NCBI GenBank assembly: GCA_964597575.1
Contig: CAZQXB010000002.1
Span: forward strand, 5,624 to 69,623
Direction of reading: 5' to 3'
Source of the DNA: an uncultured Gammaproteobacteria bacterium
GTDB taxonomy: Bacteria; Patescibacteriota; Patescibacteriia; Magasanikbacterales; UBA922
DNA: 64,000 nt
Numbering within the stretch: position 1 is the stretch's first letter; each line of letters starts with the position of its first letter. Shown piece by piece: positions 1 to 48,442 of this stretch. Both the position numbers and the translations under genes were made by a program. Under the pieces are notes generated by a model. It was not told where the DNA came from. It ran no database searches and saw nothing but the letters and a program-made list of their open reading frames with translations.

Positions 1-1003
1 TCCCCTATTTTTTCATCACCATACTCCATGGCAAGAGTGCTCAGCATCGCAAGCACTGCATCGACATCTTCATACTCCCCTTTTTCATCTTTAGAAAACC
101 GCTCATCAATCAGTTCTTGAATATGAACGTAAGAGATATGCTCTGTAATTTCTGGCATCTTTGGGGTGGGTGGGATTGGTAGTACAGGAGACTGGACCTC
201 TTTTTCTTCTCTTCGAGAAGATCGATTTTTTGATTCCCCACTCACCTCTGGCATACTATTTCCTTCCGACTTTTTTTCTGGAGTTTTGAGCGGAGGGCTG
301 TTTTGAAGTGCTTCATCAGAAAAATTCAATGCTGCTTCTTGGCGTTTGTACATAACATCTACCAAGATATTGGTAATCGCCTCGTTCTTTCTGAGAAAGT
401 CGACAAAAGAAAGAAAAGATCGAGTAATCGCCACCTTATCAACCTCTTCGGTCACTGCATGCAAGGGAGCGTTGGCAAAAAGTTCTTGCTCAATACGCGC
501 GAGCGTGGCTGAATCATCGAGCCCGACATCTTTCCGAACAACAGCACTTCTTTGCTTTATCAAATCTCGAAGCGGTAAACTTCCAGATTTTCCTGGGTTA
601 ATTGGTACGGGGCTTTCTAAAATCTCTTGGCGCATGGAGCGATAGGCCACTTCTATTTCTTTCTCCCCTACATACCTCCGATAGAGAAAAAAGAATACTT
701 GATCTTCGACAGGAAGATTCAACCGAAAGGCGGTCGGTACCTGCCACTTTAAATGGGCAAAAACCTCATTTTCTGGAAGGCGGAGAAAAATATCCCACGT
801 GAGACGAACAAATAATTCCCAGTGATGAGGATACCCACTAATACGGGCGTAGTTCCCCTGATTATCGGCAAAGAAATCTCGCCACAAACGATACAGTTCA
901 TCCACCTGACTCCGTTCAGAAAACACTACATCAAAAGCCGCGTGAAGCGCTTCAGGCTCTGTTTTGATGTTCGGAATGAATGATTGAAGAGCGTCGGGCA
1001 TAT
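1..1003 (-). CDS. hypothetical protein, 5' portion (gene runs off the window start)
   Basis: Minus-strand ATG at 1001-1003 (MPDALQSFIPNIK...) with an AAGGAG 8 nt upstream, lying inside the 3' end of the preceding gene. The frame appears open to the window edge. The ORF track shows no complete minus-strand ORF here, consistent with an edge-truncated gene. No recognisable domain. Confidence 0.45.
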
Positions 1004-1009
1004 AACGTA

Positions 1010-4000
1010 TTAACTCCTTTCTACATTATCCAAAATCTCTTCTATTTTATCTCGGGTTAGCGTAGCATCTCCAGCGGCTGATTTTATGAAAGTATCAAGA
1101 GCTTTTTGACGATAATCAACCTCTGTCTTAGACATACCACCCGAAACTGCTTCAGAAACTCTCACTTCAAGGTCTGCAACAATCTTCTTGAAAATTTCTT
1201 TAATGTCAGAATTTGCAAAATCAAAACCTGTACCATTGAAGCCCCCCTTCATTTCTGTACCACCACTTAGGACATTCATGATGGATTTCTTGATTCCACT
1301 AATGGTTGAGGCATCTGCATTTCCTAAACTTTCGATCAACCTCTGCATATCGCCATCAACGACACTCTCGGCTCGTCCATCTACATTCAGTGTAAACACG
1401 GTTGGCGCACGTTCAATACCAGAAATTCTCTGGTCGCGACGAGCATACTCTACAGATCTATCTTGAATAACAGTACCCATTTTATCAGGGTTGTTTACTG
1501 CATCCGTAATATACTTCACATTCTGCGCATTCGTTCCAATTCCCATTGCTCGCGTAAACCCGTATGCTTCCCTCAAGTCATTTTCGGTATCGAGCCCACG
1601 ACGAACCTGCCCCTTATATTGATACGATTTCGAAAGCTCCGCATTCCGATCCATTGAAGTGGCCAAATTACGAAATGACCCCTGCGCTTTTCCACCTAAA
1701 CTTCTCACCAAATCTTTTTGAGCACCATCGAGTTTCTGCATCTTTTCATCGTCAGAAACCCCTGGGTCAATTCTTTTTTCAAGAGCGCCCTGAAGCCCTA
1801 AAATGATCTGTGGAATGTCTTCGGCACTTTCTGTAATATCTTTGAACCCGATGGCTTTTTCTTCACGTAAAATATTCATGAGGTTGGTTCCCTCTCCGTT
1901 TTCAAGTGAGCTATGAATGAGAGAATCCATATTCCCCCGTGCAGCAGCTAATGCTTTTTGATCTCCCGCTGCTTTTGCCTTATCAATTTCCCTAATATTT
2001 TTTCGAATCGCATCACTTCGTTCTTGAAAATTGAACTTCGCATAGTCAGCCATGGCTTTCCGATGTGCTTCATCTTGACTGAGCATAACCTCTTTAGGAT
2101 CCTGCCCTTGGATGACTCTATCCATATCACGCATCGCTGCTAACTGCCCGACTGTCTTTCCTTCGTAGCCACCCTGCGTTCTCTTCAAAAGCGCATCTTG
2201 ATAAACACTAGCAAGCATTGGCATGCTATTGCCATTTTTTTCTAAGTACTCACCAACAAACTTCGCCCGTTGTTCATCGGTATACTTTGTCTGCCCCGGA
2301 GCAAATGTATTTCGATCCCTTTTCTCCCCTTCTGCAATTTTTTTCTCCAAAGCAGCTTTCTCACGCTCCATCTGTTGATCTCTCAAGCTATATTCCTCTT
2401 TCTTTTGTTCTGCATTTCCTCGTGCTTTTTCCGTTTCCAAAGCAACTGTCGCTCTTGATAAAGCAGAACCAGCTCCTGAGGTTCGTGACCCTCTGGCAAT
2501 ATTGGTATCTCGAACAGCTTTCGTGGTTGCCTGGTACTCAGATAAACGACCTTCAAGCTCTCCATCTTTTGCACCCAGAGTTTTATAGTACCCCTGCTTA
2601 ACCTTTTCAATTCCAACCTGTCCATAGTATTTTCCGTATTTATATGGCAGGTATCCAGTTCCAGCAATTGCACCAGCCTTAAGCGCACCCTTCGTCACTT
2701 TCTTACCGGCACTAATAATGCTTCCCGCAATATCACTTCCACGTAAGCCAATTTTTTGCACACGCTCAATACCGAGAAGAAGAAAACCGACGGCAATGAA
2801 AAACCCGGATAAATTTTCCCAGCGCGCAATAGCGTTAATACTAACTGACGGACTTTCATTCCCTTGTTCAAAAACAAGATCTGAAACTCCTTGCAGTTCT
2901 TCTGCGTTACCCACGGGCCCACCGAGCGAAGCCGAGATATCACCATTTCCAAGTGTTGCAAATGAAAGCCACAAAAAGAAAGCCATCATGGGGCCGACAA
3001 TAATATATTTAGTGAACTCTCCCCAAAATTCTTTGGCATAACTATTGGTTTGGGGCAAAGCAGACAAGACAAAAGCAAGAGGTGACAAAATAATGAGCAT
3101 CCACAGTATAAGAACACGCACCAGCATGAGAAACGCATAGGCACCAATAGTAAAGAGCGATATAATCGAAAAAATAAGCGCTGCCGCTGCACCTGCTAAA
3201 AGATCTAAGTGGATACTCTCGTTTCCTGCAGCGCTACTATTTGTAGAAATCTGCAAAATTTTATCGAGCTGGAGCATATTAATCAGATTTCCTCCGGCTG
3301 CACCCTCTACGGCATTTAAAAATGTCAGAGTTATGACATGCGAAACATCAATAAAAAGCCCTAAAATAAGCCTACTAAAATTAATGAGAATGGCCGCCAT
3401 GATGAGCTGCACCAGCGATTTTTTCCAAGCATAATTTTCAAAACCGAGCATGGTGGAAAAGGCAATAACAAGAAGCGCCACAATAAAAAACATGTTCGCC
3501 AAATCGCGCACCATAAACCACCCCACCACAACAGGAGGGGCATCGATAAATGCGTTATACGCAGCTAATTTAAGAAAATAATCGAGACAAAAAACCGTTA
3601 AACTGAGAAATAGCCGAGAGATGCCAAGAAAAACATAGGAAACCGCGGTTATAATGGCGTTCGCAACACCTTCCGGAGTAAGACTTGGCGCCGAAGCCAC
3701 AGCCTCCTTAGCAACTTCAATGCCTTTGGGCAAGAGATACGGAGCTGCGAGAGCAGCCCCTTCTACAAACTGCGCATGGACCAAAGAAAATGATACAAGA
3801 GAAGCAGCGCCGATAAGGATTAAAAAAACCCAGACTTTGGTATGTCCGATCAACAGAAACTCCTTCCATTTCTGCCAAGCGCGACCGAGGGTTATTGAGA
3901 GGTAGGCACGCATGGAAATATATACAAGGAAAATCACTCTTAACCCCTTCAGTATAGCACAATCGGGCACCCGTGCCCATGGGGATAACGGGGTATTCAT

Positions 4001-4102
4001 GTTATCCACAGTTTGGGTCAAATACTTGACAAAATGCCAAAAATAGTGTCTACTATAGGATAGTTCTCGTAGTTCTTGACAACGTGTGAGGAAGAAATCC
4101 AC
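1010..4102 (-). CDS. large polytopic membrane protein (~8-9 TM in N-terminal 470 aa) with ~550-aa charged coiled-coil C-terminal domain; hypothetical, VirB6/TrbL-like topology possible
   Basis: 1030-aa ORF. N-terminal half has many long hydrophobic segments; C-terminal half is K/E/R/Q-rich with low-complexity coiled-coil character. Start uncertain (alternatives at 4000 or 3913). Stop is 7 nt before the next minus-strand start, so operon-like. Confidence 0.6.
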   Translation of the reverse strand: MDFFLTRCQELRELSYSRHYFWHFVKYLTQTVDNMNTPLSPWARVPDCAILKGLRVIFLVYISMRAYLSITLGRAWQKWKEFLLIGHTKVWVFLILIGAASLVSFSLVHAQFVEGAALAAPYLLPKGIEVAKEAVASAPSLTPEGVANAIITAVSYVFLGISRLFLSLTVFCLDYFLKLAAYNAFIDAPPVVVGWFMVRDLANMFFIVALLVIAFSTMLGFENYAWKKSLVQLIMAAILINFSRLILGLFIDVSHVITLTFLNAVEGAAGGNLINMLQLDKILQISTNSSAAGNESIHLDLLAGAAAALIFSIISLFTIGAYAFLMLVRVLILWMLIILSPLAFVLSALPQTNSYAKEFWGEFTKYIIVGPMMAFFLWLSFATLGNGDISASLGGPVGNAEELQGVSDLVFEQGNESPSVSINAIARWENLSGFFIAVGFLLLGIERVQKIGLRGSDIAGSIISAGKKVTKGALKAGAIAGTGYLPYKYGKYYGQVGIEKVKQGYYKTLGAKDGELEGRLSEYQATTKAVRDTNIARGSRTSGAGSALSRATVALETEKARGNAEQKKEEYSLRDQQMEREKAALEKKIAEGEKRDRNTFAPGQTKYTDEQRAKFVGEYLEKNGNSMPMLASVYQDALLKRTQGGYEGKTVGQLAAMRDMDRVIQGQDPKEVMLSQDEAHRKAMADYAKFNFQERSDAIRKNIREIDKAKAAGDQKALAAARGNMDSLIHSSLENGEGTNLMNILREEKAIGFKDITESAEDIPQIILGLQGALEKRIDPGVSDDEKMQKLDGAQKDLVRSLGGKAQGSFRNLATSMDRNAELSKSYQYKGQVRRGLDTENDLREAYGFTRAMGIGTNAQNVKYITDAVNNPDKMGTVIQDRSVEYARRDQRISGIERAPTVFTLNVDGRAESVVDGDMQRLIESLGNADASTISGIKKSIMNVLSGGTEMKGGFNGTGFDFANSDIKEIFKKIVADLEVRVSEAVSGGMSKTEVDYRQKALDTFIKSAAGDATLTRDKIEEILDNVERS
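4083..4096. repeat. left arm of perfect 14-bp inverted repeat (CGTGTGAGGAAGAA) flanking GC-rich cassette
   Basis: Exact reverse complement of 4706-4719. The arms bracket the only GC-rich segment in this region. Confidence 0.75.
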
Positions 4103-4143
4103 CCCTTACCCCGCCACAGTGCGGGCTGCAGAGGAGAATCACC

Positions 4144-4656
4144 ATGAATACCCATTTCTTTGCCGCCCTTCTGGCGGCTTGCGTCTCTTTCGCCACCGCC
4201 TGCGGTGGTGACGATCCGACGGATCCGGTCAACAACCCCGACAGCGGGGTCGTGAACCCCACCGTCGACAGTGGCTACCCCCCGCCCTCCTGTGAGGGCG
4301 TGTTCTGCCCCGAGCGGCAGATGTGTCAAATCGGCGTGTGCCAGCCGATCCCATCGAGCGACTGCTCGATGTACAACTGGCTCACGGAGCAGGTGTTCAC
4401 CTGCACCCGAGACAAGACCGCGGTCTTCGTGGTTGAAAACAACATGGAGCCGTCGACGTGCGTTCTCCGACCTCCGACAGAGGAGGAGGATCCGTTGTAC
4501 GACGGACTCGACGCCGAGTTCGGCTTGAACCCCGGGGCATCCCATGGAGTAGCGCGGAACGCGCACGCAACCGTGATCGACATGAACGCGGTCGACAAGA
4601 CGTTTTCCGTGACGCACACTCCGTCCGGAAGCCGGTGGGAGTGCAGAATCCCATGA
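4144..4656 (+). CDS. GC-rich (approx 62% GC) Cys-rich putative lipoprotein, foreign-looking
   Basis: GAGGAG RBS 6 nt before the ATG. Lipoprotein-type signal peptide MNTHFFAALLAACVSFATAC with Cys at the cleavage site. CxxxxCxxxxxCxxGxC EGF-like cysteine pattern. Strong GC3 bias unlike neighbours. The antisense ORF 4018-4722 is a GC artefact. Confidence 0.6.
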   Translation: MNTHFFAALLAACVSFATACGGDDPTDPVNNPDSGVVNPTVDSGYPPPSCEGVFCPERQMCQIGVCQPIPSSDCSMYNWLTEQVFTCTRDKTAVFVVENNMEPSTCVLRPPTEEEDPLYDGLDAEFGLNPGASHGVARNAHATVIDMNAVDKTFSVTHTPSGSRWECRIP

Positions 4657-4705
4657 CGAAGTTCTCGATGAGCTTGTGTCTACAAGTTCTGGATGCTTGC
4701 GAACG

Positions 4706-4719
4706 TTCTTCCTCACACG
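4706..4719. repeat. right arm of perfect 14-bp inverted repeat (TTCTTCCTCACACG)
   Basis: Reverse complement of 4083-4096, 50 nt past the cassette stop codon. Confidence 0.75.
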
Positions 4720-4754
4720 CATCCATAGAGCATCAAAAAAATTTGATCTTCTAC

Positions 4755-4795
4755 AAATAAAACAATCTGGCTACATAGCCAGATTGTTTTATTTT
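4755..4795. terminator. bidirectional rho-independent terminator
   Basis: 10-bp stem CAATCTGGCT/AGCCAGATTG with a 4-nt loop, flanked by A-run and T-run. Serves the 3' end of the giant minus-strand gene and the plus-strand cassette gene. Confidence 0.7.
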
Positions 4796-4818: not shown

Positions 4819-7800
4819 TTACTCTTGCGATGGACGAAGTGGAATTACAATGATTTCACCCTGATATCGAGTCCAAACATTCCGCGGATTATTATCGCTT
4901 AAATCATCGCAGATGTCATCGACTATACTTTGAGTATCACTCCCATCATGAAAACCCTGCACTGATTGCACCCCGTTTTCAACCCCGTTACACCACCCCC
5001 AATTATCTTTCACCTGAACTCGGGGACGGAAGACGCATACTCGTTCATTTTCACCGAGTCCATATTCCGCACTTAAACGAACACGGGCATCTGGGTTCTG
5101 AATATCTCCCACCCGAACCGTAAATGCAGCCGGGCTGTTCGGATTCACATCTTCAACCGTACAGGTATAGTCTTTCACAAAGTTAAATGGTCGGGCTAAA
5201 CACGCACGAGGAGAGTTTCCAAATCGAGCAAATTGGTATGAATCAGAACGATCTTGATCGGTATTTGCTGCTGGCCCATAACACCGATAATTTGTTTGAG
5301 CGTTTCTTGGGTCAGTTGTCGGGCAATCCGCATGTGTACGACACGTGAACAAACTGAGGTCAGTGGCAGTAGTTCCACAAAGACCGATGGTTACAATTGC
5401 GTTGTCCGCAGAAGAACAGTAGGGCTTACGATTCTTATATAAACCCGTCTGATTCTCATTCACAATAGGGCTGTTATCACCCCAATTTACCCGTACCTGA
5501 CGAATCGGCATCTTATTGTCGTCGGCTGCCGCAAAAAATTTCATATTTACCTGGAGGTTACCAATACCGATAAGACCCCGAGGATCTGGTGCACCACTTC
5601 GATCAAGGTCTTCATCCGAAGAACCATCTTGACTCCGATCGTAGTTCCGCATCGTGCTATTTTGGCCATTAATTGTCATGTTGTTTGGCTCACCGAGGCC
5701 ACATTTTGACCGTGATTGTTCGCCCACAGTACCACCACCTGGGCAGTTTGCCGGGTTAAGCGAATAGATTTGCGGCGCAACCAAGGTGCCAATTTCTGGC
5801 ACTGGATTACTCACACCACTTCGGTCAACGGCTTGTACTAATGGATCGATGGTCGTACGACTGGTCTGTACATTTGGACGTACACTTGCGTTTTCTAAAC
5901 TAAAGGTATCGAAGGTGAGGGCAAATAAGCGACTGAGTGCGTTTTCACCTGCAGTTTGGTTTTGACCAAGAACGGCCACCTGTGCCGGAATAAGCGGACT
6001 CACGAGAGCTCTTGATTCAAGTGTTGAACAAGGGTGAGCCGTATTTCCTGTTAGATAGAGCGACCCAAACCAGCTTGCCCCGCTACATGCATATGGAACA
6101 CCATCAACTAAATCTTCCCCATGCATACCCGACTGAAATCCGTATCGACGGAGTATCTCAGCCTGTTCGTCTGAAGTGCCAAAATTCGTAATTCGGAGAG
6201 AGCCAAATGGAGAATTCCGCATACCATCTTTCGTAAAGACGCTCCCGAAAGAAGGATGGGTCATCGAACGAATCGCATTACTTACACTACTTACCGCGTT
6301 CGTGGCATACTGCCATACCCGGTTAGTCCATGCTTTATTTAATTGTTCTGTAAGCGGTGCGGAACTGTCGTGCACTTGCGCAACAGCAGTACACTGGTCT
6401 GCCATTTGAGCGATCGTTGCAAAATAGATACCGTCGCTTACATCTGTTGCCTGAAGAACAGATTCATTACACCATCTGCTTACAAAACCTAAGAATTCAC
6501 CATCTTCATTAAAGTCCATCCCAATAGCCACCCAATTTTCCGTGTCTCCATCTCCATCGGCATTCGAATCGGTTTTACACAGAACACTATCGCTAAATGG
6601 ATCACTAATTGGTGCTTGATTTCGGCCAGCGAATGATGACACAGAGGTGTCGAGTTCTTGATTCAACACAAAGGAAGGAAAACGCGATCCTCCACCACTC
6701 GTATTTCCCTGACCCCGGTCAACAAAGAAAATTGAAACATATCGTTCTTGAATACGGTTTCTGCGGCACCATTCTTCAAACTGAGGCCGGACACTGGTCG
6801 TTCCACATTCTTGATTATATTGGTTAAAAAGCCAACCTGAGCCCCCCGTGAGATCCGTATAATCGAGAGAATCAAATTCTGCCCCCTCGGCTTCAGGGCG
6901 CACATACCGAACATTTACCACTACCCCATTATTTCCCCCACCCGCAGGCTCTGCATAGTAATCTCCCTGACTTCCAGCCCCACCAAAAGAGGTTTGGCGG
7001 CCAGACGTAATAATAGGATCATTATGGGCTCTACTTCGAAGAGCAGCCACATCGAGGAAAAACCCATCGTTTAAAATCTGTGGAGCATACCCTTCAAGAC
7101 CTCCCGGAAACGCAAGAGGGACGAAGGTTACTCGAGACAAATCCGATGAGCGCATAAACGCAGTTTCAGCACGTTGCATCACCCGAAAATGACCACTCTG
7201 GATACTCCGCTCAAGTTGGGAATTTGACTGATTAAACGTATCAAGCCGATCTGGAGTCATCCCCAAGTTGTACTGACCATCTGGCGTATTTGGATTTGGA
7301 GCTGGATCAGGCACACCAAGATATGAAGTATTTACCGAAAAGTTATTCATTCGGTCACGATACATGAACACATTGGTCGTGTCTCCAGGTGGCGTTACCC
7401 CAAATTGTCGAGGAGGGTGAAGAAGGGTGCCGAAAGCCGCCACCTCTGCATCAGTTTGGTTTGAAAGAACCAAATCATCATGAACATTGTTCGCAAAAAC
7501 ACTAGGAGTGTACACCTGCAGGTCACTTGCCCGAACGGTATCGTATGTGTTTGGGTCATTACTTCCATTAAGGGAGCTCATTTCTGTGCGAAGGAGCAGA
7601 GCACTTGGACCGAAACGGCGCCATGCCCACGATTGAATGGCCGAGTAAATGTACCCCTGGTCAACCGAGTTACACATGATTCGTTCAAATTCCGTATCTG
7701 TGCTACAGTCTCCTCCGTTCGTTGGGTCCTGGCCTGCAGGAAACACCTGATCGTACACAGTGTTGCCATCCGCTACAGTACGAATGGCATTATCCGTGCC

Positions 7801-10800
7801 ACCACCAACCGGAGGCGAAATATCTGGCGCCTGAAGCCCAACACCAAGACGTGTCGAGTTAACACAGTAGGCCTGTCCTGCAATTTGTGGAGTATTTCTC
7901 AAAAGTAAGGCATCGATATCGGGTTTATACCCCGCTTCGTCATCGGCATTAAAAATATCAAATGTTGAGGCTGACACGCCAATAGGAAGCCAGGTGAGGC
8001 AGGCGTATTCCGTTGGAGAATTTATGCCGTTTACTGGACGACTTAGATCTCGCTCTAAACAGAATCCTTCAAACCCATAATAGGTATCTCTCTTTTGAAT
8101 CGGTATACATTCGTGTGGTGTTTGATTGGTTTGTGGTTGGTTTGGCGTGGCAACATTACACTGCTCAATAGCTGAACATGGGCGGCCTTGGTTTGGCCCC
8201 GTAGCACATACACGCGTTGGGATTGGTGCAGCCGCATTCGCACTTTCATATAAGTAAGGCCAATAATCCACGACTCCGTTTCGGTAGGTTACTTTCACAT
8301 ACTTACACGAACAATCTTCTCCGGTTTGGCACACATTTGCTCCTGCAAATTCATTCAACTTTGAAATAAATTCAACACGGGGAGCAGAAATTCCCAGCGC
8401 TCCAAGTATATTTCTCGCGGTTGTTTCTTGTTTCAGCACTGATTGTGGATACGGTGAAGTGGCCTCAGGGTACGCTTTACACGATGCCGCTTCAAGCACA
8501 GAAACAAGGGATTCAATTTCACGAGGACTGATATTTCCTGAAGGAATTGTACGGTCTGAAGGAAATGTACCCTTTACCGGGCGAATACACTGCCCTGAAT
8601 AACACCGGCCGAGACCACCTGACCCACACACGCGCCAATCAGTGCGCTCATTCCCCACTGGGGCACACGCGCTGTTTGCACTCCGCTGTAAATACACCGC
8701 ATACGCACGCTCTTCAAGGCGCTCAAGGCGACGAAGATCCGCAGCCGCGTCTGGGCTCTGTGGGTTGATAGCTACTTTATCTGCACTCAGATCCAAAACG
8801 ATATATGATTGATTTCCGATTTGATACTGGTTAAACAGTGAGTACCCGCTGTATTCTGGATCATTCCAACCAAGCCCTCGTTGAATATAGAGATCTTCCG
8901 TAAGTTGACGTGATGCTTCAGGGGCAAGTTCCCCTACCCAGTGCGTACAGACACCACCTGCACCCATCTGATCACACGCCTTATAGTCGTAGCAGAGCTC
9001 ACTTTGTCTTCCTTGCTCATCTTCTTGAATCACCTTTCCTTTACATGCAAGCCACTCAGCACAAACACGGTCTCGATCAACCTTAAGCACGATATTTGCA
9101 TCGTTATCAGTAACACTCCCAGCGGAACGAGGAGAAACCGGGGAAAACTCTGGGCTCGCCAAAGCACTCGCGCGGTATGTAGCATCGGTACTATACGTTT
9201 TTCTTGGGTTATCGGTTTGATCAAAGAGAATACAACCGTCAACCTGGCTTGCCCCCGTAGCACAAGCTTGGGCACGGGCGCGAATTTTATCATTGTTCTT
9301 TACATAATACGGCCGACCATTTGGGTAAGCCCCTGATACATCAACCGGGTCAATAAATTCTGTACACAAATGAGCTTCGGCCGCACACACCGCTACACGG
9401 CCCGTATATTCTGGAGAATCATTGGAGCGTACGTCGTATACCACACCGGACGAAGTTCGACGCAAGAATGTTGCGTCACAGGCTACAGCTGACGCGACAC
9501 AGGTATTACCGGCTCCACAATCACTATTATTATTTGTTCGGCAAACCATGGTAGCATCTTGGCTGCACCGACCCATACCTCTCAGAAACCAACCGTTCAC
9601 TCGCGTTTGCCCTACCGATTGGCCTTCAAGGTACTCACACACCCCAGCACCAGTAAATTCAGGGTCACGGAAATAACTCACCGTATTGTCGGAGCGAAAT
9701 TCTGCACAACCAATTTGCTCGGCTTGACAAAGGATTCCGGCGCTTTCCCCAGGGGCCGTAACGTAGTTCGCAGGGTTATTCAAAAGGTACACCTCATTAA
9801 AGGTAAAGGCTGCTGCATCTGCCCGAGGCAATACTTGCGTTTCCATAGCAACTTTCTGGCAGCCAAGTTCAGTTGAGCGGCAAGTAACATCTTTTCTATT
9901 GGTAAGAAAGAGCGGCGCCGCCACTGCCGTATCAGCAGGAATAACTACTGATGTGTTCACTACTCGAAGTGGACCAACAGGAAACACAGTGCCGGTTGGA
10001 ATAATGATCGCTTCATTGATATAACAACCTTCTTGGCCACGTGGAACCGTACATTCATAATCCACATTCGCCACACGAGCAGTACAATTCGCACTTCCAG
10101 GAGCACTGCACCAAACATTGAACGCCTGAGCAAAGGTGGAAGCTGGGGCGGCACCTAACGTATTCTGTGTATCCCATACTGGCTCACATCCAACCGCGGC
10201 TTCACGACAAATCGTTTCAAAACCAGTTGCATAGACCACACGATTCTTGCTGTCCGTATATGCACGGCATCCGAGAGCTTCACCTGGGAATATATCCGTT
10301 GGGGTGCTATCGCACTGGGTTGGAACATCCCCGCCACCGGCTACTCTCCATGAATTTCGGATCAGCGGTGTACGGTCTCGAAGTTCAATTAAACGAACAT
10401 AGTCAAGGAAATAATCCCGTGCGTTTCCTGACCGAACGAACTCAATGGCGAGAGGCTCCGCAGGATCAACACCATCAAGCGAGACTGGCCCAAACGTGAA
10501 CTCCTGCCATCCACCAGTAATACCTGCAAGGGCGGTCGGTTCGGTAAATGCACCAAATTCGACACCATTCGCATTCACTCGACTTCCGTTTTGAGTAAAG
10601 TAAATTTCGAGATTTTGTAACCCGTCAGCTCGGCCCCAGAAGGTAAGAGTGAACGTTTTTCCGACTTGCACTTGAGCCTGAGGAACCGTGCGGGCAACCC
10701 GTGCTGCGGCCGCTGGAATTCCCAAAGAATGTTCACCTACAATAACCGCTTCCCCAGCCAGACGAAGTGCTGCGTTATTTTGAACCGGAGCCCAACCAAG

Positions 10801-13800
10801 GGCCAGCGGTGCCTGAGTATCTTCAAAGTTATCATTAATAACGGTTGCAAAGACATTGCGACCTGTGTTTCCTACATACACTCGGCAATTGTTTGCCAAA
10901 GCTGGGCAAGCGCTCGATTGTCCGGCGGTGGTGAGGGCTTGGTACACACAAGCGCCATTTTCTACACGGCCTCCAGCTGCACAACGGCGGCATTCATTTT
11001 CAGCAACATCCCAACTTCCGCCCCGACCTGTACAAGCAGCACTGTTCGTTAAGACAGCATCAACATAGAGCGATGAATCTGTTTTTCGTAAACGTGAACA
11101 TTCTGCCGAGACAGCGATTGTTTCTGACAATAATCGATAGTACACTTCTCCATTCGCATCATAGAGTGCACGACAGTCAATGTCAGCGCGGTTTGGATTC
11201 ACAGGGTCATTAACACCGAGCGTATAGTTTACTTCGTTACACCGGGTTACGGCGTTTTGGAGCGCCTCACCATTATCGTTTGCATACGTTGGGCTACCAA
11301 CCGCAAAAATGGTATTGTAATTCACTCCTTGCACAGTACCTGCAGCAGTAGCCGCGCTTACCATATACGCACTATTCTGAACATCGAGAGCTACAAGAGT
11401 GTGAACCCGAAGCACATACCCTTCTCGATCCGACCCTTCCCATGAATAGTATGTTTGCCCAGGATTTACCTGCGGTCGTTCACAGCGACGAAGGTCGGTG
11501 TAGTATTCACGACCCTCTCCTCCGCGGGCAGCAACATCGATATTCGTAAATTCCGAACACCCGGCAAAGCGCTCCTGACAGCGGTCGCCTGCTGAAGGAA
11601 TAAAATGAAGGGGAAATACGGCCGGGTCAAAGGCGGTGGCTTCCTGACGGAACGTATCGTAACCAACACAAATTTGGTTACAGGTATTTCCACCGACCAT
11701 ACCTGGAATTGCTGGGGCTCCGGCACCACCAAGAGGTCGATATGATTCACACCCAACTTCTTGTGGCGCACACGCCGCAGCAAACTTACCACAGGCATTA
11801 TTCCGGGCAAAAACGGTTTGCGCTTCGGCGCTGGTTCGTGGCCAATTTACTTCCGGTGTTGCAATGTTTGTATCGTAACAACCAAGATAGTCAGGGGCTT
11901 TTTTCAAATATGCAATTTCACTCACGGGCGCTTGAATATATTGCCCGCCTGCTGTTTGTGAAAACTGACCGCTTTCAACGACGCGAAGTGCAGTAAAGAA
12001 CGCATGACAACCTTCGGCGCCTGTAGGGCATGTTTTTTCTGTACCAATTTGGTTTACAAAGAGTGCTTGATTTCGCCCGAGCGTTACTGTTTTCAAGGCA
12101 AGATTCGCCTGAGCTGTAGGAATCCACTGCCCCTGTGCATTTTGTTCGGTACTGAACGCGCGACAACCAACCGTATCTGCGGTACAGGTAGAAAAATCAA
12201 TAGTACGAGTAAGATACGAGTCAACTTCACCAGTGCTATTTCGGTACGTACGACATGTGGCATACTGTGGTGCACACACATCCCCATTCAGCTTCCAAAT
12301 ATTTTTTTCTTTTGTACAGAAACCCTGACCCATACAGCTTCCATCACTATTTGTTGCGATACAGGTTGCAATGTCAGCACACTCTTCTCCGCGTGTCGGA
12401 GATGCCGGAGTAACAAGGTTCGGCCCAACCACCCGTGCAGGGCAGCTCGCCGAGAAAGAACGGAGTACCCAATTTGGATTAATAAGGTGGCAATACGGAA
12501 ACTGAGCACTTGCACGCCCGTCTGGGGCACAGTTCTCAAAGTTATCAACCACCCTCTGGAGCGTCCAGTTTTCTTGCGGGCTATCTGGATCAGCCTTAAG
12601 CGCAGCGATTTCAAAACCAAGCGGCAAAATACGCGCCTTTCGAAGCTTCTGAATGTTTGAATAACAATACGCATTACTATAGCATTCAGAGTCTCTGTTT
12701 CCGTTTCCTCCGGCAACTTCTCGGCGCGGTGAAATAAGTGGCCAATCTCCATGCAAAAGACCAGCATTCATGGCCTCACGAATGGTCATGGGCTTATCGA
12801 GCGTACCTCGCGTAAGTGCCTGGAATAAACTTTGATCCATGACACAGTTATCAAGTTTCGGATTTTTTGGACAAGTGACAAAATTGAGTAACACGTCGTA
12901 ACTTGGAACACTTACCACCTGAGCCGTAAGTAAATCAGAAAGAACCCCAGCCGGCTCACGATTTCGATTCCCTACAGCGAAAAAATTTGGGTCAAATGCG
13001 TTCGGCTGAAAAAGCCCCTGTTCAAATGTCTGATCAAGAAGTGTAGTAACGAACGACCCTAAGAAGGTCTGTACTGCCAAAGGAATGGCCTGTGCCGCAC
13101 CCGACGCAATGGCGCCACCCAATAATTGAAAACCACCGGTCACGAAATTATCGCTTGCAATATTTTTTGTTGCTGCCTGCTCAAAAAACCTCGCTGGAGT
13201 GAGAATCGTATCAGACACTTTATCTTTCAGATCACGAAATCCATTCCCAATCGTACGTTCAAGACCAGCAGACGCAGCAGCGGTCGCACGAATGGCATCA
13301 ACCTGGGCAATTGCCCCAAAAGCCAAACCAAAGTCAGATTGTTTTACGCTGACCGCATCGCTAAACTTCTGCGGAATGAGCTTACTCGCACCCTTTCCAA
13401 ATTTCCGCTCAAACCCTTCAGCGCTCCAGTTATTTCGAAATTCTTGCAATGTACACCGTGGAGTAGGGGAACCTTGACCGTATAAGTCCCCGATACCGAT
13501 TTGCAAGAAAAGCTGTAAACGAATATCAGGAATCTGACACAAATTTAACCCGAACGGCTGTCCAATACTCACAATCGCCTCCCCTACTGCTCCACCTGCC
13601 ACATCCGCAATATAATCCCCGGCTGGCTTTTCAAAAACCAGTGATTTTTTTCCGGCGGCACTTTCACCTAAAAACTTCGCGGTATCGTAGGCTAATTTTT
13701 TCAAAAAATAACTCGCGGTATTGTAGGCGGTACCAATGGCTGCCTGAAGCACCGCTTCGGTCAAGCTAAACTTAGCTTCCTGTCTCCCTTCTGATTCCCA

Positions 13801-13947
13801 CCGGGGATAGTCGAAAGTCGTTACGTTTTGTACAGCAAACTGCGCGTATGCTGGAGTAAGTGGCTGTAAAACCACACCTCCAAGAACCAAAAATAAAAGA
13901 AAAATACCTGCCATCCGCCTCCCCTTACCTAACAAAAACCTAAACAT
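4819..13947 (-). CDS. giant (3042 aa) secreted Cys-rich surface protein
   Basis: Uninterrupted 9.1-kb ORF. Sec signal peptide (KGRR n-region, hydrophobic core, AYA-QF cleavage site). Hundreds of Cys in recurring C-x-C / C-x-x-C spacings, and Gly/Asn/Thr-rich beta-type repeats. No catalytic motifs recognised. Alternative start at 13914 has a GGAGG RBS. Confidence 0.8.
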   Translation of the reverse strand: MFRFLLGKGRRMAGIFLLFLVLGGVVLQPLTPAYAQFAVQNVTTFDYPRWESEGRQEAKFSLTEAVLQAAIGTAYNTASYFLKKLAYDTAKFLGESAAGKKSLVFEKPAGDYIADVAGGAVGEAIVSIGQPFGLNLCQIPDIRLQLFLQIGIGDLYGQGSPTPRCTLQEFRNNWSAEGFERKFGKGASKLIPQKFSDAVSVKQSDFGLAFGAIAQVDAIRATAAASAGLERTIGNGFRDLKDKVSDTILTPARFFEQAATKNIASDNFVTGGFQLLGGAIASGAAQAIPLAVQTFLGSFVTTLLDQTFEQGLFQPNAFDPNFFAVGNRNREPAGVLSDLLTAQVVSVPSYDVLLNFVTCPKNPKLDNCVMDQSLFQALTRGTLDKPMTIREAMNAGLLHGDWPLISPRREVAGGNGNRDSECYSNAYCYSNIQKLRKARILPLGFEIAALKADPDSPQENWTLQRVVDNFENCAPDGRASAQFPYCHLINPNWVLRSFSASCPARVVGPNLVTPASPTRGEECADIATCIATNSDGSCMGQGFCTKEKNIWKLNGDVCAPQYATCRTYRNSTGEVDSYLTRTIDFSTCTADTVGCRAFSTEQNAQGQWIPTAQANLALKTVTLGRNQALFVNQIGTEKTCPTGAEGCHAFFTALRVVESGQFSQTAGGQYIQAPVSEIAYLKKAPDYLGCYDTNIATPEVNWPRTSAEAQTVFARNNACGKFAAACAPQEVGCESYRPLGGAGAPAIPGMVGGNTCNQICVGYDTFRQEATAFDPAVFPLHFIPSAGDRCQERFAGCSEFTNIDVAARGGEGREYYTDLRRCERPQVNPGQTYYSWEGSDREGYVLRVHTLVALDVQNSAYMVSAATAAGTVQGVNYNTIFAVGSPTYANDNGEALQNAVTRCNEVNYTLGVNDPVNPNRADIDCRALYDANGEVYYRLLSETIAVSAECSRLRKTDSSLYVDAVLTNSAACTGRGGSWDVAENECRRCAAGGRVENGACVYQALTTAGQSSACPALANNCRVYVGNTGRNVFATVINDNFEDTQAPLALGWAPVQNNAALRLAGEAVIVGEHSLGIPAAAARVARTVPQAQVQVGKTFTLTFWGRADGLQNLEIYFTQNGSRVNANGVEFGAFTEPTALAGITGGWQEFTFGPVSLDGVDPAEPLAIEFVRSGNARDYFLDYVRLIELRDRTPLIRNSWRVAGGGDVPTQCDSTPTDIFPGEALGCRAYTDSKNRVVYATGFETICREAAVGCEPVWDTQNTLGAAPASTFAQAFNVWCSAPGSANCTARVANVDYECTVPRGQEGCYINEAIIIPTGTVFPVGPLRVVNTSVVIPADTAVAAPLFLTNRKDVTCRSTELGCQKVAMETQVLPRADAAAFTFNEVYLLNNPANYVTAPGESAGILCQAEQIGCAEFRSDNTVSYFRDPEFTGAGVCEYLEGQSVGQTRVNGWFLRGMGRCSQDATMVCRTNNNSDCGAGNTCVASAVACDATFLRRTSSGVVYDVRSNDSPEYTGRVAVCAAEAHLCTEFIDPVDVSGAYPNGRPYYVKNNDKIRARAQACATGASQVDGCILFDQTDNPRKTYSTDATYRASALASPEFSPVSPRSAGSVTDNDANIVLKVDRDRVCAEWLACKGKVIQEDEQGRQSELCYDYKACDQMGAGGVCTHWVGELAPEASRQLTEDLYIQRGLGWNDPEYSGYSLFNQYQIGNQSYIVLDLSADKVAINPQSPDAAADLRRLERLEERAYAVYLQRSANSACAPVGNERTDWRVCGSGGLGRCYSGQCIRPVKGTFPSDRTIPSGNISPREIESLVSVLEAASCKAYPEATSPYPQSVLKQETTARNILGALGISAPRVEFISKLNEFAGANVCQTGEDCSCKYVKVTYRNGVVDYWPYLYESANAAAPIPTRVCATGPNQGRPCSAIEQCNVATPNQPQTNQTPHECIPIQKRDTYYGFEGFCLERDLSRPVNGINSPTEYACLTWLPIGVSASTFDIFNADDEAGYKPDIDALLLRNTPQIAGQAYCVNSTRLGVGLQAPDISPPVGGGTDNAIRTVADGNTVYDQVFPAGQDPTNGGDCSTDTEFERIMCNSVDQGYIYSAIQSWAWRRFGPSALLLRTEMSSLNGSNDPNTYDTVRASDLQVYTPSVFANNVHDDLVLSNQTDAEVAAFGTLLHPPRQFGVTPPGDTTNVFMYRDRMNNFSVNTSYLGVPDPAPNPNTPDGQYNLGMTPDRLDTFNQSNSQLERSIQSGHFRVMQRAETAFMRSSDLSRVTFVPLAFPGGLEGYAPQILNDGFFLDVAALRSRAHNDPIITSGRQTSFGGAGSQGDYYAEPAGGGNNGVVVNVRYVRPEAEGAEFDSLDYTDLTGGSGWLFNQYNQECGTTSVRPQFEEWCRRNRIQERYVSIFFVDRGQGNTSGGGSRFPSFVLNQELDTSVSSFAGRNQAPISDPFSDSVLCKTDSNADGDGDTENWVAIGMDFNEDGEFLGFVSRWCNESVLQATDVSDGIYFATIAQMADQCTAVAQVHDSSAPLTEQLNKAWTNRVWQYATNAVSSVSNAIRSMTHPSFGSVFTKDGMRNSPFGSLRITNFGTSDEQAEILRRYGFQSGMHGEDLVDGVPYACSGASWFGSLYLTGNTAHPCSTLESRALVSPLIPAQVAVLGQNQTAGENALSRLFALTFDTFSLENASVRPNVQTSRTTIDPLVQAVDRSGVSNPVPEIGTLVAPQIYSLNPANCPGGGTVGEQSRSKCGLGEPNNMTINGQNSTMRNYDRSQDGSSDEDLDRSGAPDPRGLIGIGNLQVNMKFFAAADDNKMPIRQVRVNWGDNSPIVNENQTGLYKNRKPYCSSADNAIVTIGLCGTTATDLSLFTCRTHADCPTTDPRNAQTNYRCYGPAANTDQDRSDSYQFARFGNSPRACLARPFNFVKDYTCTVEDVNPNSPAAFTVRVGDIQNPDARVRLSAEYGLGENERVCVFRPRVQVKDNWGWCNGVENGVQSVQGFHDGSDTQSIVDDICDDLSDNNPRNVWTRYQGEIIVIPLRPSQE

Positions 13948-26835: not shown

Positions 26836-27789
26836 ATGCTCACTACAAACAAATTCTCCATGGAAAAAGCGGTGAGCCAATTCGTTCACCGTGGATATAC
26901 TTTTGTTCCTGCCGACCTATGGCGCTTTGTCAGACCACTCAACACAGGATTCACCGAATTCCTACGGTATTCAGAGCAAGAACGCCGTTCTTTTACCTCG
27001 TTCCGGCGGTTTGACCCAAATGACCCTAACCAACCCGATGATGGATATATGGCTCGGCGCGGAGCCGAAACCAAGAGCCGGAATGGCAAGCAGGGCGGGA
27101 AGACCGATATCAAGGATATTATCCACATCCGCGGAGACATCTTTGATATCTACCGCGAAGCTGGTCTAAGACTGAGCCCAAGGGAGACCAGATGGCTCCA
27201 AACCGGCGTCGATGCGCACCAGGCTGTACGCACACTACTCGATCCGTTCTATCTCCAACTCGAGAAGACGCTCACTCAGAAAAACCTCCTGAAAAAAGAG
27301 GGGTTTTACCGAATGATGCGAGACCTCTCGGTGGACCGATCGGTGCTACGCCTCAACCACTACCTGAAGATGCGCGACGACCGTCCGTCGAGTACGCGTT
27401 GGGCTCAGGTGGGTCGCAGTCACACCGACCGATGCTTTCTCACGGTGGCCTGGTTTGAGGGTCTTGCTGACGGTAACCGCGACGAGTCCTCTCGATTGCA
27501 ACGGTATTTCGGAAATTTCATCCTTCCGCAGATACCCAATTTCGTGCCGGATGAAAGCCTGAAGCTCGAGACATCTGACAAGCGCGACCGCGACCACCTC
27601 AAGTGGCGACGAGTTGCTCCACGACCAAGCTACGTTCTCATCTTCGCATCAGCCATGGCCAATCAGGAGTTCGGTATCCCCGCCATGTGGCATCGCATCT
27701 TGTCCGAGAACGGTAAGAGGGTCGCACGTCGGTCGTTCGTCCACTTCGAGCAGATGCCGATCGAATTTTTCGGGTATGGAAACCACTAA
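26836..27789 (+). CDS. GC-rich island gene: putative 2-oxoglutarate/Fe(II)-dependent oxygenase (isopenicillin-N-synthase-like superfamily)
   Basis: AAAGGGGGGG RBS. LRLNHYL (cf. LRLNYYP), HTD followed by LTV (HxD...LT), distal WH and RxS 12 aa later (WHRILSENGKRVARRS). GC ~55% against a ~45% backbone. Candidate extended -10 promoter TTTACA-N17-TGTGATACT upstream. Confidence 0.5.
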   Translation: MLTTNKFSMEKAVSQFVHRGYTFVPADLWRFVRPLNTGFTEFLRYSEQERRSFTSFRRFDPNDPNQPDDGYMARRGAETKSRNGKQGGKTDIKDIIHIRGDIFDIYREAGLRLSPRETRWLQTGVDAHQAVRTLLDPFYLQLEKTLTQKNLLKKEGFYRMMRDLSVDRSVLRLNHYLKMRDDRPSSTRWAQVGRSHTDRCFLTVAWFEGLADGNRDESSRLQRYFGNFILPQIPNFVPDESLKLETSDKRDRDHLKWRRVAPRPSYVLIFASAMANQEFGIPAMWHRILSENGKRVARRSFVHFEQMPIEFFGYGNH

Positions 27790-42987: not shown

Positions 42988-43122
42988 GGCTCTTGACAAC
43001 AGAGCCAAAATGGAGTATATTTTCTGGTTGACTGCCATAGGAAAAATGCCTGGGCAGCGGCTTACCTTGGCAATTCGCCTCGGTAATTACCCCCTTCATC
43101 CGAAGGGACAAGGACACGACAA

Positions 43123-43956
43123 GTGAGCAAGCAGAAGAGCGGTTCGATGGTTCCCGGCAAGATGACCCTGGCCGAGGCGAAGCAGTGGCGCCCGGACCCA
43201 GCCAACAAGCCGACCCGCGTCATCCCGGAGCGCCTGCAGACCAAGGGGCGCATGAACGCGGTCGCCCGCTACGAGCAGGTCTTCGCCCGGCGCAAGGGCG
43301 TCGGTGGCACGAAGGATCAGATCATGGCGGGCATGAAGAACATCCGCCGTAAGAACGAGACGGTGTACGCCTGCCGGCAGGCGTACACCGCCCTGCTCGA
43401 CTGCGGGTACATCCGTGAGATCGAACTGACCGACAAGAAGGACATGGTGTTCGTCATCTTCCTCGTGGCGCCGGCCGTGCCCGAGAAGAAGACCGCGACG
43501 AAGACGACCGGGGTCAAGAAGGTCGAAGGAACCATCAAGGTCGACCGCAGCAAGATCACGGATCTCCAGCCGGTCGAGACGCGTGGGAGCGACCGCACCG
43601 AGGAGGAGCTGCTCACGCAGAGGATGGCCGAGCTCGACGCCGAGGAAGGTGCGCTCGAGGCCAACCTCCTCAACGTGCGCGACGAGAAGAAGGCCACCCA
43701 GACCAGGCTCACAGAACTTCTGGCCGCCGCGGTCGATCAGAAGGCGAGGGACTTGATCCCGAACGTCACCCACCTGGGCGAGCTGGCGTTCAGCGAGCTG
43801 GCCTTCGCGATCGAGGCCGAGAAGTTGCGCCGTCGAGGCCGTGACAGCACGGACAGCACCGACGAGAACGATGGCGCTGGAGCGACCGCCCCGGCCATGA
43901 TGGCCACTCCCGGTCTGAGCGGCACCAGTTCCGCGACCCAGATGGCCACCGCCTAG
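43123..43956 (+). CDS. GC-rich island gene: hypothetical protein with central coiled-coil and acidic Ser/Thr-rich C-terminus
   Basis: GC ~65% with extreme GC3 bias. GTG start per the ORF track, with alternative ATGs at 43147 and 43162. No recognisable catalytic motif. The antisense ORF 43096-43965 is a GC artefact. Confidence 0.55.
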   Translation: MSKQKSGSMVPGKMTLAEAKQWRPDPANKPTRVIPERLQTKGRMNAVARYEQVFARRKGVGGTKDQIMAGMKNIRRKNETVYACRQAYTALLDCGYIREIELTDKKDMVFVIFLVAPAVPEKKTATKTTGVKKVEGTIKVDRSKITDLQPVETRGSDRTEEELLTQRMAELDAEEGALEANLLNVRDEKKATQTRLTELLAAAVDQKARDLIPNVTHLGELAFSELAFAIEAEKLRRRGRDSTDSTDENDGAGATAPAMMATPGLSGTSSATQMATA

Positions 43957-43996
43957 CCACACCACTCACGTGACGTAGCAAGGCAAGGAGAAGATA

Positions 43997-44056
43997 CCCG
44001 AGTTTACGCACACATTGAAAGGAGATGTGCGCAACTCGGGTGTTTTTATTTTTTCT
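43997..44056 (+). terminator. strong rho-independent terminator after island-3 gene
   Basis: Long stem CCCGAGTT..GCGCAC / GTGCGC..AACTCGGG followed by TGTTTTTATTTTTT. Confidence 0.7.
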
Positions 44057-44064: not shown

Positions 44065-44832
44065 ATGTACCATATGTTTACCCCTTCTGCTCCTTGGTAT
44101 AAACATGGCGCCGGCCGTGCCTTCCTTATTTTTCTCGCTATCATCGGGCTTATTGCAGCGAGCTTCGGTACTTTGGTTGCTTATTATTTGTGGCACTATA
44201 ACCAAGGTACTTTTGCAACTGTTGAAAAAAAACTCTATGAAGGCAGGCAAAGCACCTTGACTGGAGCGGCGCAGCAACCCAAAAACCCAACCATTGCGGA
44301 CCCTACAAAACTGATCCGTGCGCACAACCCTACCATTGGCGAGACCGATGCGCCGATTACGGTCATCATGTTCATCGACTTTGAGTGTCCATTTTGCCAA
44401 GCCGATTACGCCAGCATGCAAAAAATTCGTGACCAGTACGCCGGCGTGGCGCGATTTGTATTTAAACATTTTCCCGTTGAAGCCATTCATCCCAACGCAC
44501 GCACGGCTGCCATGGCTGCCGCTTGTGCAGCAGAAGAGGGAAAATTCTGGCCGTACTACGATCATTTATTTCAAAACAAAAATCTTTCTGAACACGGTTT
44601 AGCGACCGCAGCCACAGCGCTTAACATTAAAACCCCTCGTTTCGACAGCTGTCGAAGCACGTACCGCACGGCAAAATTCATTGAAGAAGATGTAAACGAC
44701 GCTTACGCTATTGGTATTCGCGGAACACCAACGTATATCGTCAACGGCACCCGTATCGATGGGAGTATTCCAGAAAGCGAATGGCAGCGCATCATGGTTG
44801 AAGCACTCAAAACACCCGCCACAAAACCATAA
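44065..44832 (+). CDS. membrane-anchored DsbA/BdbD-like thiol:disulfide oxidoreductase
   Basis: N-terminal TM anchor, FECPFC CxxC motif, and a thioredoxin fold. TATACT -10 at 44050-44055 only ~9 nt before the ATG, suggesting a leaderless transcript; alternative ATG at 44074. Confidence 0.75.
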
Positions 44833-47831: not shown

Positions 47832-48230
47832 CTACATGTGGTGGACGAGCTTGACCCAGCCAACAACCGGCTCTGGTTTCGCCTCCCACTCATAACGGGA
47901 ACGGTCGCACAGGTTTCCGGTCGGCAGGCGGCAAAGCTTAGTCTCGCGGACCATGACAATCCAGCCCCGCAATAAGGTGGCACACGCCTCCACAGACGCG
48001 TCGACATGTGATATGCCGGTGTAGAACTCGAGGGTGGCTTCTCCAGCGCGAGCGTGAAACTCGCAGGAGATGAGCACTCCGTCGGCGTCTCGACTGGCGA
48101 TGATGTAGACCACTTCAGCCGGATACGACTCAGCATTCACGAAACATCCCCGCTCTCGAGTAATGACATCGATCGGGTAGATGATGAAAGCCACGAACAC
48201 GAGGAACTTGAGCCAGCTCTTGTTTTCCAT
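47832..48230 (-). CDS. GC-rich island gene: small membrane-anchored hypothetical protein (approx 131 aa)
   Basis: GGGAGAGG RBS 8 nt before the MENKSW ATG. N-terminal TM helix (WLKFLVFVAFIIYPI) then a ~100-aa Cys-containing domain. GC ~57%. Start placed by counting from the ORF end; the local sequence is ambiguous by ~2 nt. Confidence 0.5.
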   Translation of the reverse strand: MENKSWLKFLVFVAFIIYPIDVITRERGCFVNAESYPAEVVYIIASRDADGVLISCEFHARAGEATLEFYTGISHVDASVEACATLLRGWIVMVRETKLCRLPTGNLCDRSRYEWEAKPEPVVGWVKLVHHM

Positions 48231-48360
48231 TGTTTTTACCTCTCCCTGTGAACAATCTCTCATGGCAGTAGAAGCAAGGCACATGACCCTGAACCACTAC
48301 CGCCACGAAAGACTGTTCTTGCCTAATGAAAGCTAAAATAAAGCTCTATATAGACACATG

Positions 48361-48408: not shown

Positions 48409-48442
48409 ATAAAAAAGAACCCCGATATCGGGGTTCTTTTTA
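48409..48442. terminator. terminator downstream of rplS
   Basis: Palindrome GAACCCCGAT/ATCGGGGTTC flanked by AAAAAA and TTTTT. Confidence 0.7.

Follow-up and report, generated by a model that had tools for sequence, protein, structure and literature searches.

We analysed a 64,000-nucleotide stretch of a Patescibacterium genome (positions 5,624 to 69,623 of contig CAZQXB010000002.1, hereafter the window), in which a gene for a small cysteine-rich lipoprotein, rich in guanine plus cytosine (GC), lies between the two arms of a perfect 14-nucleotide (nt) inverted repeat. The reading that we favour, with about an even chance of being right, is that the arms are conserved complementary segments of the 5′ and 3′ untranslated regions (UTRs) of one lipoprotein messenger RNA (mRNA), which pair end to end. 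The original prediction had taken the segment for a mobile or recombined passenger cassette, small and of foreign origin, and had named pairing of the two UTRs over 14 nt as the alternative. It is the alternative that we favour, since the arms were conserved and complementary in three genomes, lay inside the predicted transcript and formed a helix in its folds. We infer the pairing in RNA, as opposed to a reading of the arms in DNA, and likewise the effect of the pairing and the function of the protein.

The 5′ arm (4083-4096, forward strand; CGTGTGAGGAAGAA) and the 3′ arm (4706-4719, forward strand; TTCTTCCTCACACG) are exact reverse complements 609 nt apart, as first described, and the match ends sharply, with neither side extendable. 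The 5′ arm follows the predicted transcription start by about 20-30 nt, holds a Shine-Dalgarno-like GAGGAA and is part of the conserved block ACAACGTGTGAGGAARAA, while the 3′ arm, which is CU-rich and anti-Shine-Dalgarno-like, lies 50 nt past the stop codon inside the conserved block TTYTTCCTYACACGCAYC. Perfect 14-nt inverted repeats with a spacing of 50-1000 nt are expected 0.34 times per shuffled 64-kb sequence and occurred at least once in 21% of shuffles, so that the repeat by itself is unremarkable. When the same repeat was confined to 100-nt windows at both GC boundaries, it was found in 1 of 20,000 shuffles, which agrees with the chance of about 1e-5 first estimated for a 14-mer match with search windows of about 60 nt on each side. 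Allowing up to two mismatches, we found no further copy of the arms across the 64-kb window, and neither the window nor the other loci fetched held a copy of the arms or of the cassette beyond the orthologous sites described below. The CU-rich arm had no target in trans in the window with two mismatches or fewer, and scans of IMG/VR for the conserved arm blocks gave zero matches. In the Logan assembly of run SRR13355621, a 91-kb contig matched the window at 100% identity along 20,672 nt that include the entire cassette, and the cassette is therefore not the artefact of one assembler. An assembly chimera was rejected on the grounds of this independent assembly and of the recurrence of the module in other samples. 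An 11-nt perfect inverted repeat (3991-4001/4143-4153; GGGTATTCATG/CATGAATACCC) was also seen, which covers the lipoprotein start codon; on the minus strand the partner would read MNT..., and a repeat of this length is not beyond chance for the region.

The comparison set consisted of three genomes only, namely the window, L010 (a JGI metagenome contig) and L012 (from the Logan run SRR29476927). A GC scan of the relatives found a GC-rich patch immediately upstream of the gene for a TrbL-like protein in L010, and both L010 and L012 had, in this order, the last part of a large gene, a hairpin terminator, one arm, the GC-rich lipoprotein gene, the other arm, a conserved promoter/operator region and the TrbL-like gene; in L012, where the large gene, the cassette and the TrbL-like gene follow one another, this is the order of the window. 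The lipoprotein gene is divergent from the TrbL-like gene in L010 and L012 as in the window, with the same orientation in all three. In mRNA sense, the 5′ and 3′ arms read CGTGTGAGGAAAAA and TTTTTCCTTACACG in L010 (spacing 808 nt) and CGTGTGAGGAAAAA and TTTTTCCTCACACG in L012 (spacing 704 nt). The lipoprotein gene is a fixed part of this type IV secretion locus of Patescibacteria, in which the giant gene is followed by the lipoprotein gene, the TrbL/VirB6-like gene and the other genes of the cluster. TrbL-like loci at a greater distance (30-33% identity) had another upstream context or gene order and were without the cassette.

The three lipoproteins are homologous and 27-37% identical, with an invariant ACGG lipobox and four conserved cysteines, and the TrbL-like proteins of the three genomes are 48-57% identical. 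At the fourfold-degenerate sites of the TrbL-like genes (codons for identical residues), identity was 34-36%, against about 27% expected from base composition, which means that neutral sites are close to saturation between the three genomes. The arms and the other intergenic blocks must therefore be held by selection. Both the arms and the UTRs have a host-like composition and are better conserved than the gene between them.

Comparison with the relatives also separated the repeat from the GC-rich segment. The maximum-likelihood GC island of the window is 4099-4644, so that the left arm adjoins it and the right arm falls some 60 nt outside. In the relatives the island follows the coding sequence (CDS), being 459-1035 against a CDS of 480-1055 in L010, and 2815-3340 against 2850-3359 in L012. 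Between the 5′ arm and the GC-rich part, both relatives have a leader of about 100 nt with 36-41% GC (L010 1100-1211, L012 3400-3506), which is missing in the window between 4096 and 4097. The left arm thus adjoins the GC island in the window because the leader was lost there. The coincidence of arm and GC boundary is peculiar to the window, and we are therefore dealing with two phenomena, a repeat that belongs to the UTRs and a composition that belongs to the CDS. The leader of L010 and L012 also carries a hairpin of 23 bp (CGAGTGA...TCACTCGAGC), which is conserved, and a short upstream open reading frame (ORF) of 7 and 16 codons, respectively; in L012, the GAGGA of the 5′ arm lies 9 nt from the ATG of the upstream ORF and could serve it.

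We then looked at the arms column by column. Across 14 pairs and three genomes, all 42 pairing cells were standard, and 12 of the 14 pairs were invariant. One pair was changed on both sides, being G-C in the window and A-U in L010 and L012, and one was G-U on the mRNA strand in L010, where the opposite strand would give A-C. When the register was slid by 1-3 columns, arm pairing fell to 31-69%. The flanks just beyond the arms were conserved yet non-complementary, showing that complementarity is restricted to these 14 positions in each of the three genomes. In each genome the two arms are preceded by a conserved promoter-like element and followed by a conserved terminator, and so fall within the predicted transcription unit. 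When the full predicted transcripts were folded, 5′ and 3′ UTRs together, an end-to-end helix appeared both in the minimum-energy and in the centroid structure of each transcript.

On its own, each 3′ UTR folded into the same four-hairpin architecture, resembling that of a small RNA (sRNA), with z = -7 to -8, terminator included. In single-sequence folds of all three genomes, hairpin B (4690-4725, forward strand; stem GGAUGC/GCAUCC) presented UUCUUCC, 7 nt of the 3′ arm, in the apical loop. Of the seven outer pairs of its stem, three were changed on both sides and still paired, and the CU-rich loop was exposed in all three. A pyrimidine-rich loop opposite a partner bearing GAGGAA is the usual geometry for nucleation between RNAs. 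In the neighbouring hairpin A (4726-4753, forward strand) the structure was kept while the sequence differed between genomes, five pairs being changed on both sides.

Several points weigh against end-to-end pairing. In the covariation control, 173 of 500 shuffles equalled the observed score, so that with three genomes the covariation is suggestive and statistically not significant. The likeness of the arms would equally be kept if a recombinase or a looping regulator read the inverted repeat in double-stranded DNA. The lipoprotein gene does not have the 5′ arm as its Shine-Dalgarno sequence, as the GAGGAA of the arm precedes the ribosome-binding site (RBS) by 35 nt in the window and by about 140 nt in the relatives, and the 3′ UTR motif does not mask that RBS. 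A mechanism based on the leader cannot be general, because the window has lost this stretch of about 100 nt. In addition, the transcript ends are predictions, and the hairpins form on the opposite strand too, where they would belong to the 3′ end of the giant-gene transcript; G-U pairs on the sense strand numbered 6 against 3 A-C mismatches, which is only a modest excess.

Among the explanations that have the arms read in DNA, an invertible segment survives best, and we consider it unlikely. On this account a recombinase flips the 609-nt segment and uncouples the gene from the promoter outside it, giving phase variation of a surface protein. A perfect inverted repeat (13 of 14 positions in L010) with a spacing of 609-808 nt around a whole small surface-protein gene, with the promoter outside, is what such a system would look like, and the conservation of both arms, including the double change, fits the need for two like sites. 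Fast-evolving surface lipoproteins are, moreover, typical targets of phase variation. However, neither the ORFs scanned in the 64-kb window nor the gene lists of L010 and L012 contained a recombinase, and the gene had a single orientation relative to the TrbL-like gene in all three genomes, with the Logan re-assembly matching the window. The similarity of the two sites ends exactly at 14 nt in spite of conserved flanks, the arms of L010 differ at one position, and the covarying hairpin B would be left unexplained.

Next comes cassette exchange, the form in which the originally predicted recombined passenger cassette survives, which we regard as improbable and in which the conserved flanks, arms included, serve as anchors or sites for the repeated replacement of the lipoprotein CDS by divergent alleles from higher-GC relatives or a mobile pool. 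It would account for conserved flanks around lipoproteins that are only 27-37% identical. It would also account for the composition of the gene, since GC at fourfold sites was 62-77% in the lipoprotein genes against 35-41% in the adjacent TrbL-like genes of all three genomes despite saturation, which is hard to obtain under vertical descent with the mutation bias of the host. Other TrbL-like loci come from Patescibacteria of 52-58% GC, and horizontal transfer is common in Patescibacteria (PMC12455944). However, the searches yielded no lipoprotein homologue from high-GC genomes, phages or plasmids, and the distant TrbL-like loci of higher GC were without the cassette. The GC island of L010 and L012 corresponds to the CDS and not to a unit bounded by the arms, and there was no target-site duplication, transposase or second copy of the arms. 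For the persistent GC-richness of the lipoprotein gene as such, allele replacement from higher-GC relatives, selection on codon choice or mRNA stability, and GC-biased gene conversion at a recombination hotspot are all candidates. GC-richness as a source of extra mRNA structure was rejected, as the codon-shuffle z scores of the orthologues were inconsistent (-3.9, -0.9 and -1.4, with controls from -2.7 to +0.7). Blastn and tblastn searches of the lipoprotein gene against the 64-kb window matched the gene itself only, giving no sign of silent cassettes.

Paired DNA binding sites, by which a regulator would bind the 14-bp sequence on both sides of the gene and loop or insulate the locus, are in our judgement quite improbable. 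Both arms do stand within larger conserved blocks adjoining the divergent promoter/operator region. However, neither arm is palindromic, looping does not need an inverted orientation at 600-800 bp, a G-to-A difference in one L010 arm is tolerated, and the covarying hairpin B indicates a single-stranded structure.

The weakest explanation is that of a recently inserted element of the mobile insertion cassette (MIC) or miniature inverted-repeat transposable element (MITE) type from a high-GC donor, with the arms as its terminal inverted repeats. The window taken alone invites it, with perfect 14-bp inverted repeats at the edges of a single, compositionally foreign-looking gene whose third-position GC of 0.80 is typical of a high-GC genome. 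Yet the module was syntenic and occupied across three genomes with saturated synonymous divergence, and no empty site was found, L010 and L012 being occupied in the same orientation. The homologues of the lipoprotein, for which the original prediction had proposed a foreign origin, sit at the same locus in similarly AT-rich relatives (43-45% GC), and the GC boundary and the arms disagree there, with the leader of 36-41% GC inside the arms. Arms and UTRs that are host-like in composition and better conserved than the gene they flank also speak against insertion. No direct repeat was found at the flanks (GACAA|...|CATCC); only the self-complementary CG inside the arms is ambiguous, and local alignment of the flanks did not exceed shuffles. 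No transposase or recombinase was present among the scanned ORFs of the 64-kb window, and no donor homologue was found in the genomes, metagenomes, phages, plasmids and viral contigs searched. With three divergent genomes occupied and no duplication, copy, transposase, recombinase or donor, a recent one-off insertion is untenable, and we regard a MIC/MITE-type element as very improbable and essentially refuted. An integron gene cassette was also rejected, as there were no GTTRRRY/RYYYAAC cores at the boundaries, the arms flank the gene instead of forming a 3′ attC, and no integrase was found in the window.

Returning to end-to-end pairing of the UTRs, we propose the following course of events. 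Transcription would begin some 20-30 nt before the 5′ arm, at the conserved TTGACA-N19-TAMTAK promoter, and stop at the conserved terminator past the 3′ arm. The 3′ UTR would fold as an sRNA-like series of hairpins, of which hairpin B would show UUCUUCC, the CU-rich half of the 3′ arm, in the loop. This loop could nucleate pairing with the GA-rich, Shine-Dalgarno-like 5′ arm, and the pairing could grow to 14 bp at the cost of the inner part of hairpin B, so that the whole mRNA would be closed into a loop. The effect would likely be on mRNA stability, decay or processing, on the access of ribosomes to the leader, or on both; where the leader is kept, its small upstream ORF and its hairpin would likely be affected. 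A wider proposal, which we advance tentatively and with less confidence than the pairing itself, is that Patescibacteria of this lineage carry a hitherto unrecognised regulatory module in a type IV secretion locus of a kind reported to be essential for the epibiotic lifestyle. In such a module, an sRNA-like 3′ UTR with an anti-Shine-Dalgarno-like loop may close the mRNA of a hypervariable lipoprotein, whose CDS may have held a third-position GC about twice the genomic one for a very long time, by selection on synonymous sites or by continual allele replacement in place, and whose family may be absent from databases since gene callers pick the antisense ORF.

The lipoprotein gene itself (4144-4656, forward strand) encodes a cysteine-rich protein of 170 aa and is fast-evolving. 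In keeping with the segment of about 62% GC in a genome of about 45% GC first pointed out, the CDS had 62.2% GC against 46% for the chromosome, and third-position GC was 0.80 against 0.37-0.47 in the host genes of the window. A lipobox is present, as had been predicted, in a signal peptide (MNTHFFAALLAACVSFATAC|GG) that ends FATAC|GG, with the ACGG motif invariant in the three homologues; the n-region of the window protein is without Lys or Arg. No match was found in Pfam, NCBIfam or PHROGs, and a profile search of the PDB was also empty. An exact look-up of the protein was empty, a word search of 5.8 billion proteins gave no homologue, and an exhaustive phmmer search of 1.84 billion representatives gave a single match, which was spurious and of low complexity. 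Searches of phages and plasmids (DNA), of phages (protein) and of IMG/VR found no homologue either, and Rfam held no family. The AlphaFold model from the single sequence was unusable, with a mean pLDDT (predicted local distance difference test) of 37. On the reverse strand, we judge an antisense ORF of 234 aa (4018-4722) to be no gene but a by-product of the GC-rich sequence, since its GC values at the three codon positions (0.70/0.49/0.55) mirror those of the sense frame. The gene caller used in the Logan assembly annotated this antisense ORF and not the lipoprotein gene, which is probably why the lipoprotein is missing from protein collections. From the position of its gene, between that of a giant secreted protein and the VirB6-like gene of a type IV secretion system of the monoderm type, we suggest that the product may be a small, disulphide-rich, fast-evolving surface lipoprotein; it recalls VirB7 and the entry-exclusion proteins of conjugation systems, a functional link that is our guess from gene position.

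The control elements of the lipoprotein gene were as first described. The candidate sigma-70 promoter (4026-4056, forward strand) consists of TTGACA (4026-4031), a 19-nt spacer and TACTAT (4051-4056); it is a consensus match only, and its -35 hexamer, 19-nt spacing and TAMTAK -10 hexamer were all conserved in L010 and L012. The RBS GAGGAG is present at 4131-4136 (forward strand), with a GGAG core 5′ of the ATG in all three genomes. The terminator after the gene is a bidirectional intrinsic one with a perfect 19-bp stem (4755-4794), shared with the convergent giant gene, and equivalent hairpins were found at 319-352 in L010 and 2714-2749 in L012. Between the lipoprotein gene and the TrbL-like gene lies a divergent control region (3949-4010), in which several blocks were invariant in the three-genome alignment. 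It includes an extended -10 element for the TrbL-like gene (TGTGCTATACT; 3949-3961, reverse strand), which was found by a promoter scan and is conserved in the three genomes, and a palindromic pair, TGGGGATAA (3980-3988) and TTATCCACA (4002-4010), which lies between the divergent promoters, is kept in L010 and L012 and is probably an operator. The second half-site TTATCCACA is also a perfect DnaA-box consensus. Type IV secretion loci of Patescibacteria are often near the replication origin (PMC12102498); a replication origin at TTATCCACA was dropped, as DnaA boxes were not enriched in the window and the GC skew had no switch.

On the left of the cassette, the gene for the TrbL/VirB6-like membrane protein (1010-3913, reverse strand; 967 aa) belongs to a type IV secretion cluster, and its product is identical to the database protein P0001. 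Its homologues came from Magasanikbacteria, Uhrbacteria and other Patescibacteria, several of them carrying PF19590 or PF04610. The cassette had been placed between genes for a 3042-aa and a 1030-aa protein; the location between the two genes held, and the length of 1030 aa did not. The ORF of 1030 aa (1010-4102, reverse strand) is over-extended from an upstream GTG, and the conserved start is the ATG at 3913, from which the N-termini align (MRAYLS, MRASIV and MRASML) and which agrees with P0001. Starting at 3913, the gene is clear of the left arm. Downstream of the TrbL-like gene, L010 and L012 encode PrgI, a TraC-like protein and a VirB4-type ATPase. In the window, 6-989 (reverse strand) encodes a homologue (46% identity, E 2e-89) of a 337-aa protein whose gene comes next after the TrbL-like gene of L010; no ORF was listed for 1-1009 only because this gene, the next of the type IV secretion cluster, runs past the window edge. 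On the right, the gene for the giant secreted protein (4819-13947, reverse strand; 3042 aa) is convergent with the lipoprotein gene and has no Pfam family. Chromosomal genes of the window include those for ribosomal protein S2, GroEL, UvrA, BipA and a class A penicillin-binding protein.

Elsewhere in the window, we found a second GC island with a single gene (43040-43975), with 63-71% GC and a third-position GC of 0.90. Its ORF (43123-43956, forward strand) encodes a 277-aa orphan with no match in Pfam, NCBIfam or PHROG and no homologue, and lies between a divergent rpsB and a gene for a DsbA-like protein, with a near-consensus promoter (TTGACA-N17-TATATT, 42994-43022) and a terminator (43991-44046). 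Within this CDS there is a perfect 30-nt palindrome (43361-43390; CGGTGTACGCCTGCC|GGCAGGCGTACACCG), for which about 6e-5 are expected per 64 kb. The sole exact direct repeat of at least 16 nt in the window (TGGCGCCGGCCGTGCC; 43466-43481 and 44106-44121; about 0.02 expected within 1.5 kb) has one copy in this GC-rich orphan gene and the other, 640 nt off and in a different frame, in the host-like DsbA-like gene. Two other orphan ORFs had raised third-position GC, 26836-27789 (forward strand, 0.62) and 47832-48284 (reverse strand, 0.67), and also lacked matches in Pfam, NCBIfam and PHROG; all four genes with raised third-position GC in the window are orphans. No flanking arms were found around the other three GC-rich orphans, and the sequence shared by the flanks of the two GC islands was not above shuffles. 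Two more perfect palindromes were seen, one of 30 nt (AAAAAGAACCCCGATATCGGGGTTCTTTTT; 48412-48441) that is intergenic and terminator-like, and one of 20 nt (GCATCGCCTTAAGGCGATGC; 50231-50250) within ORF 49686-50375.

The locus offers a concrete and testable case of long-range pairing between 5′ and 3′ UTRs in a bacterial mRNA beyond the few model cases. It does so in a phylum whose gene regulation is scarcely understood, and the module adjoins the type IV secretion system that Patescibacteria need for life on their hosts. The lipoprotein gene also calls for caution in composition-based detection of transfer, since a third-position GC of 0.8 in a genome of 46% GC looks imported and yet the gene was syntenic, and deviant in composition too, in relatives whose synonymous sites are saturated. 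A further point is a blind spot of annotation, in that the antisense 234-aa ORF was called in place of the lipoprotein gene in a public assembly.

The locus can be compared with several known systems. Mobile insertion cassettes and passenger MITEs, such as MIC231 of Bacillus cereus, carry a single non-transposase gene bounded by short terminal inverted repeats; unlike them, the cassette described here is without a target-site duplication or a cognate insertion sequence and has a single copy at a fixed syntenic position. The vlsE expression site of Borrelia combines a surface lipoprotein gene of GC content well above that of the genome with short conserved flanking repeats and a hypervariable CDS. 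However, the vlsE repeats are direct and the system needs an array of silent cassettes, whereas the arms here are inverted and the 64-kb window holds no silent cassette. Invertons, such as fimS, hin and the invertible promoters of Bacteroides, likewise have short inverted repeats a few hundred bp apart that flank an element for variable surface proteins. They differ from the present locus, in which the promoter is outside and a whole gene inside, no recombinase was found nearby, each assembly has one orientation and the similarity spans 14 bp only. As with VirB7, TrbK and Eex, a small fast-evolving lipoprotein is encoded beside VirB6-family and type IV secretion genes; unlike these, the lipoprotein of the window has shown no sequence or structural similarity to them, and VirB7 is said to be missing from type IV secretion systems of the monoderm type (PMC12102498). 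The nearest precedent is an mRNA of Staphylococcus aureus, that of icaR, in which a 3′ UTR motif pairs with the 5′ UTR (PMC3868564). Our case differs from it in that the 5′ partner is not the RBS of the main gene, that site being 35-140 nt farther downstream, the helix has 14 bp without a mismatch, the organism is a Patescibacterium, and the evidence is purely comparative. What the icaR mRNA and the transcript predicted here have in common is that a pyrimidine-rich, anti-Shine-Dalgarno-like motif in a structured 3′ UTR complements a purine-rich, Shine-Dalgarno-like segment of the 5′ UTR across the whole CDS.

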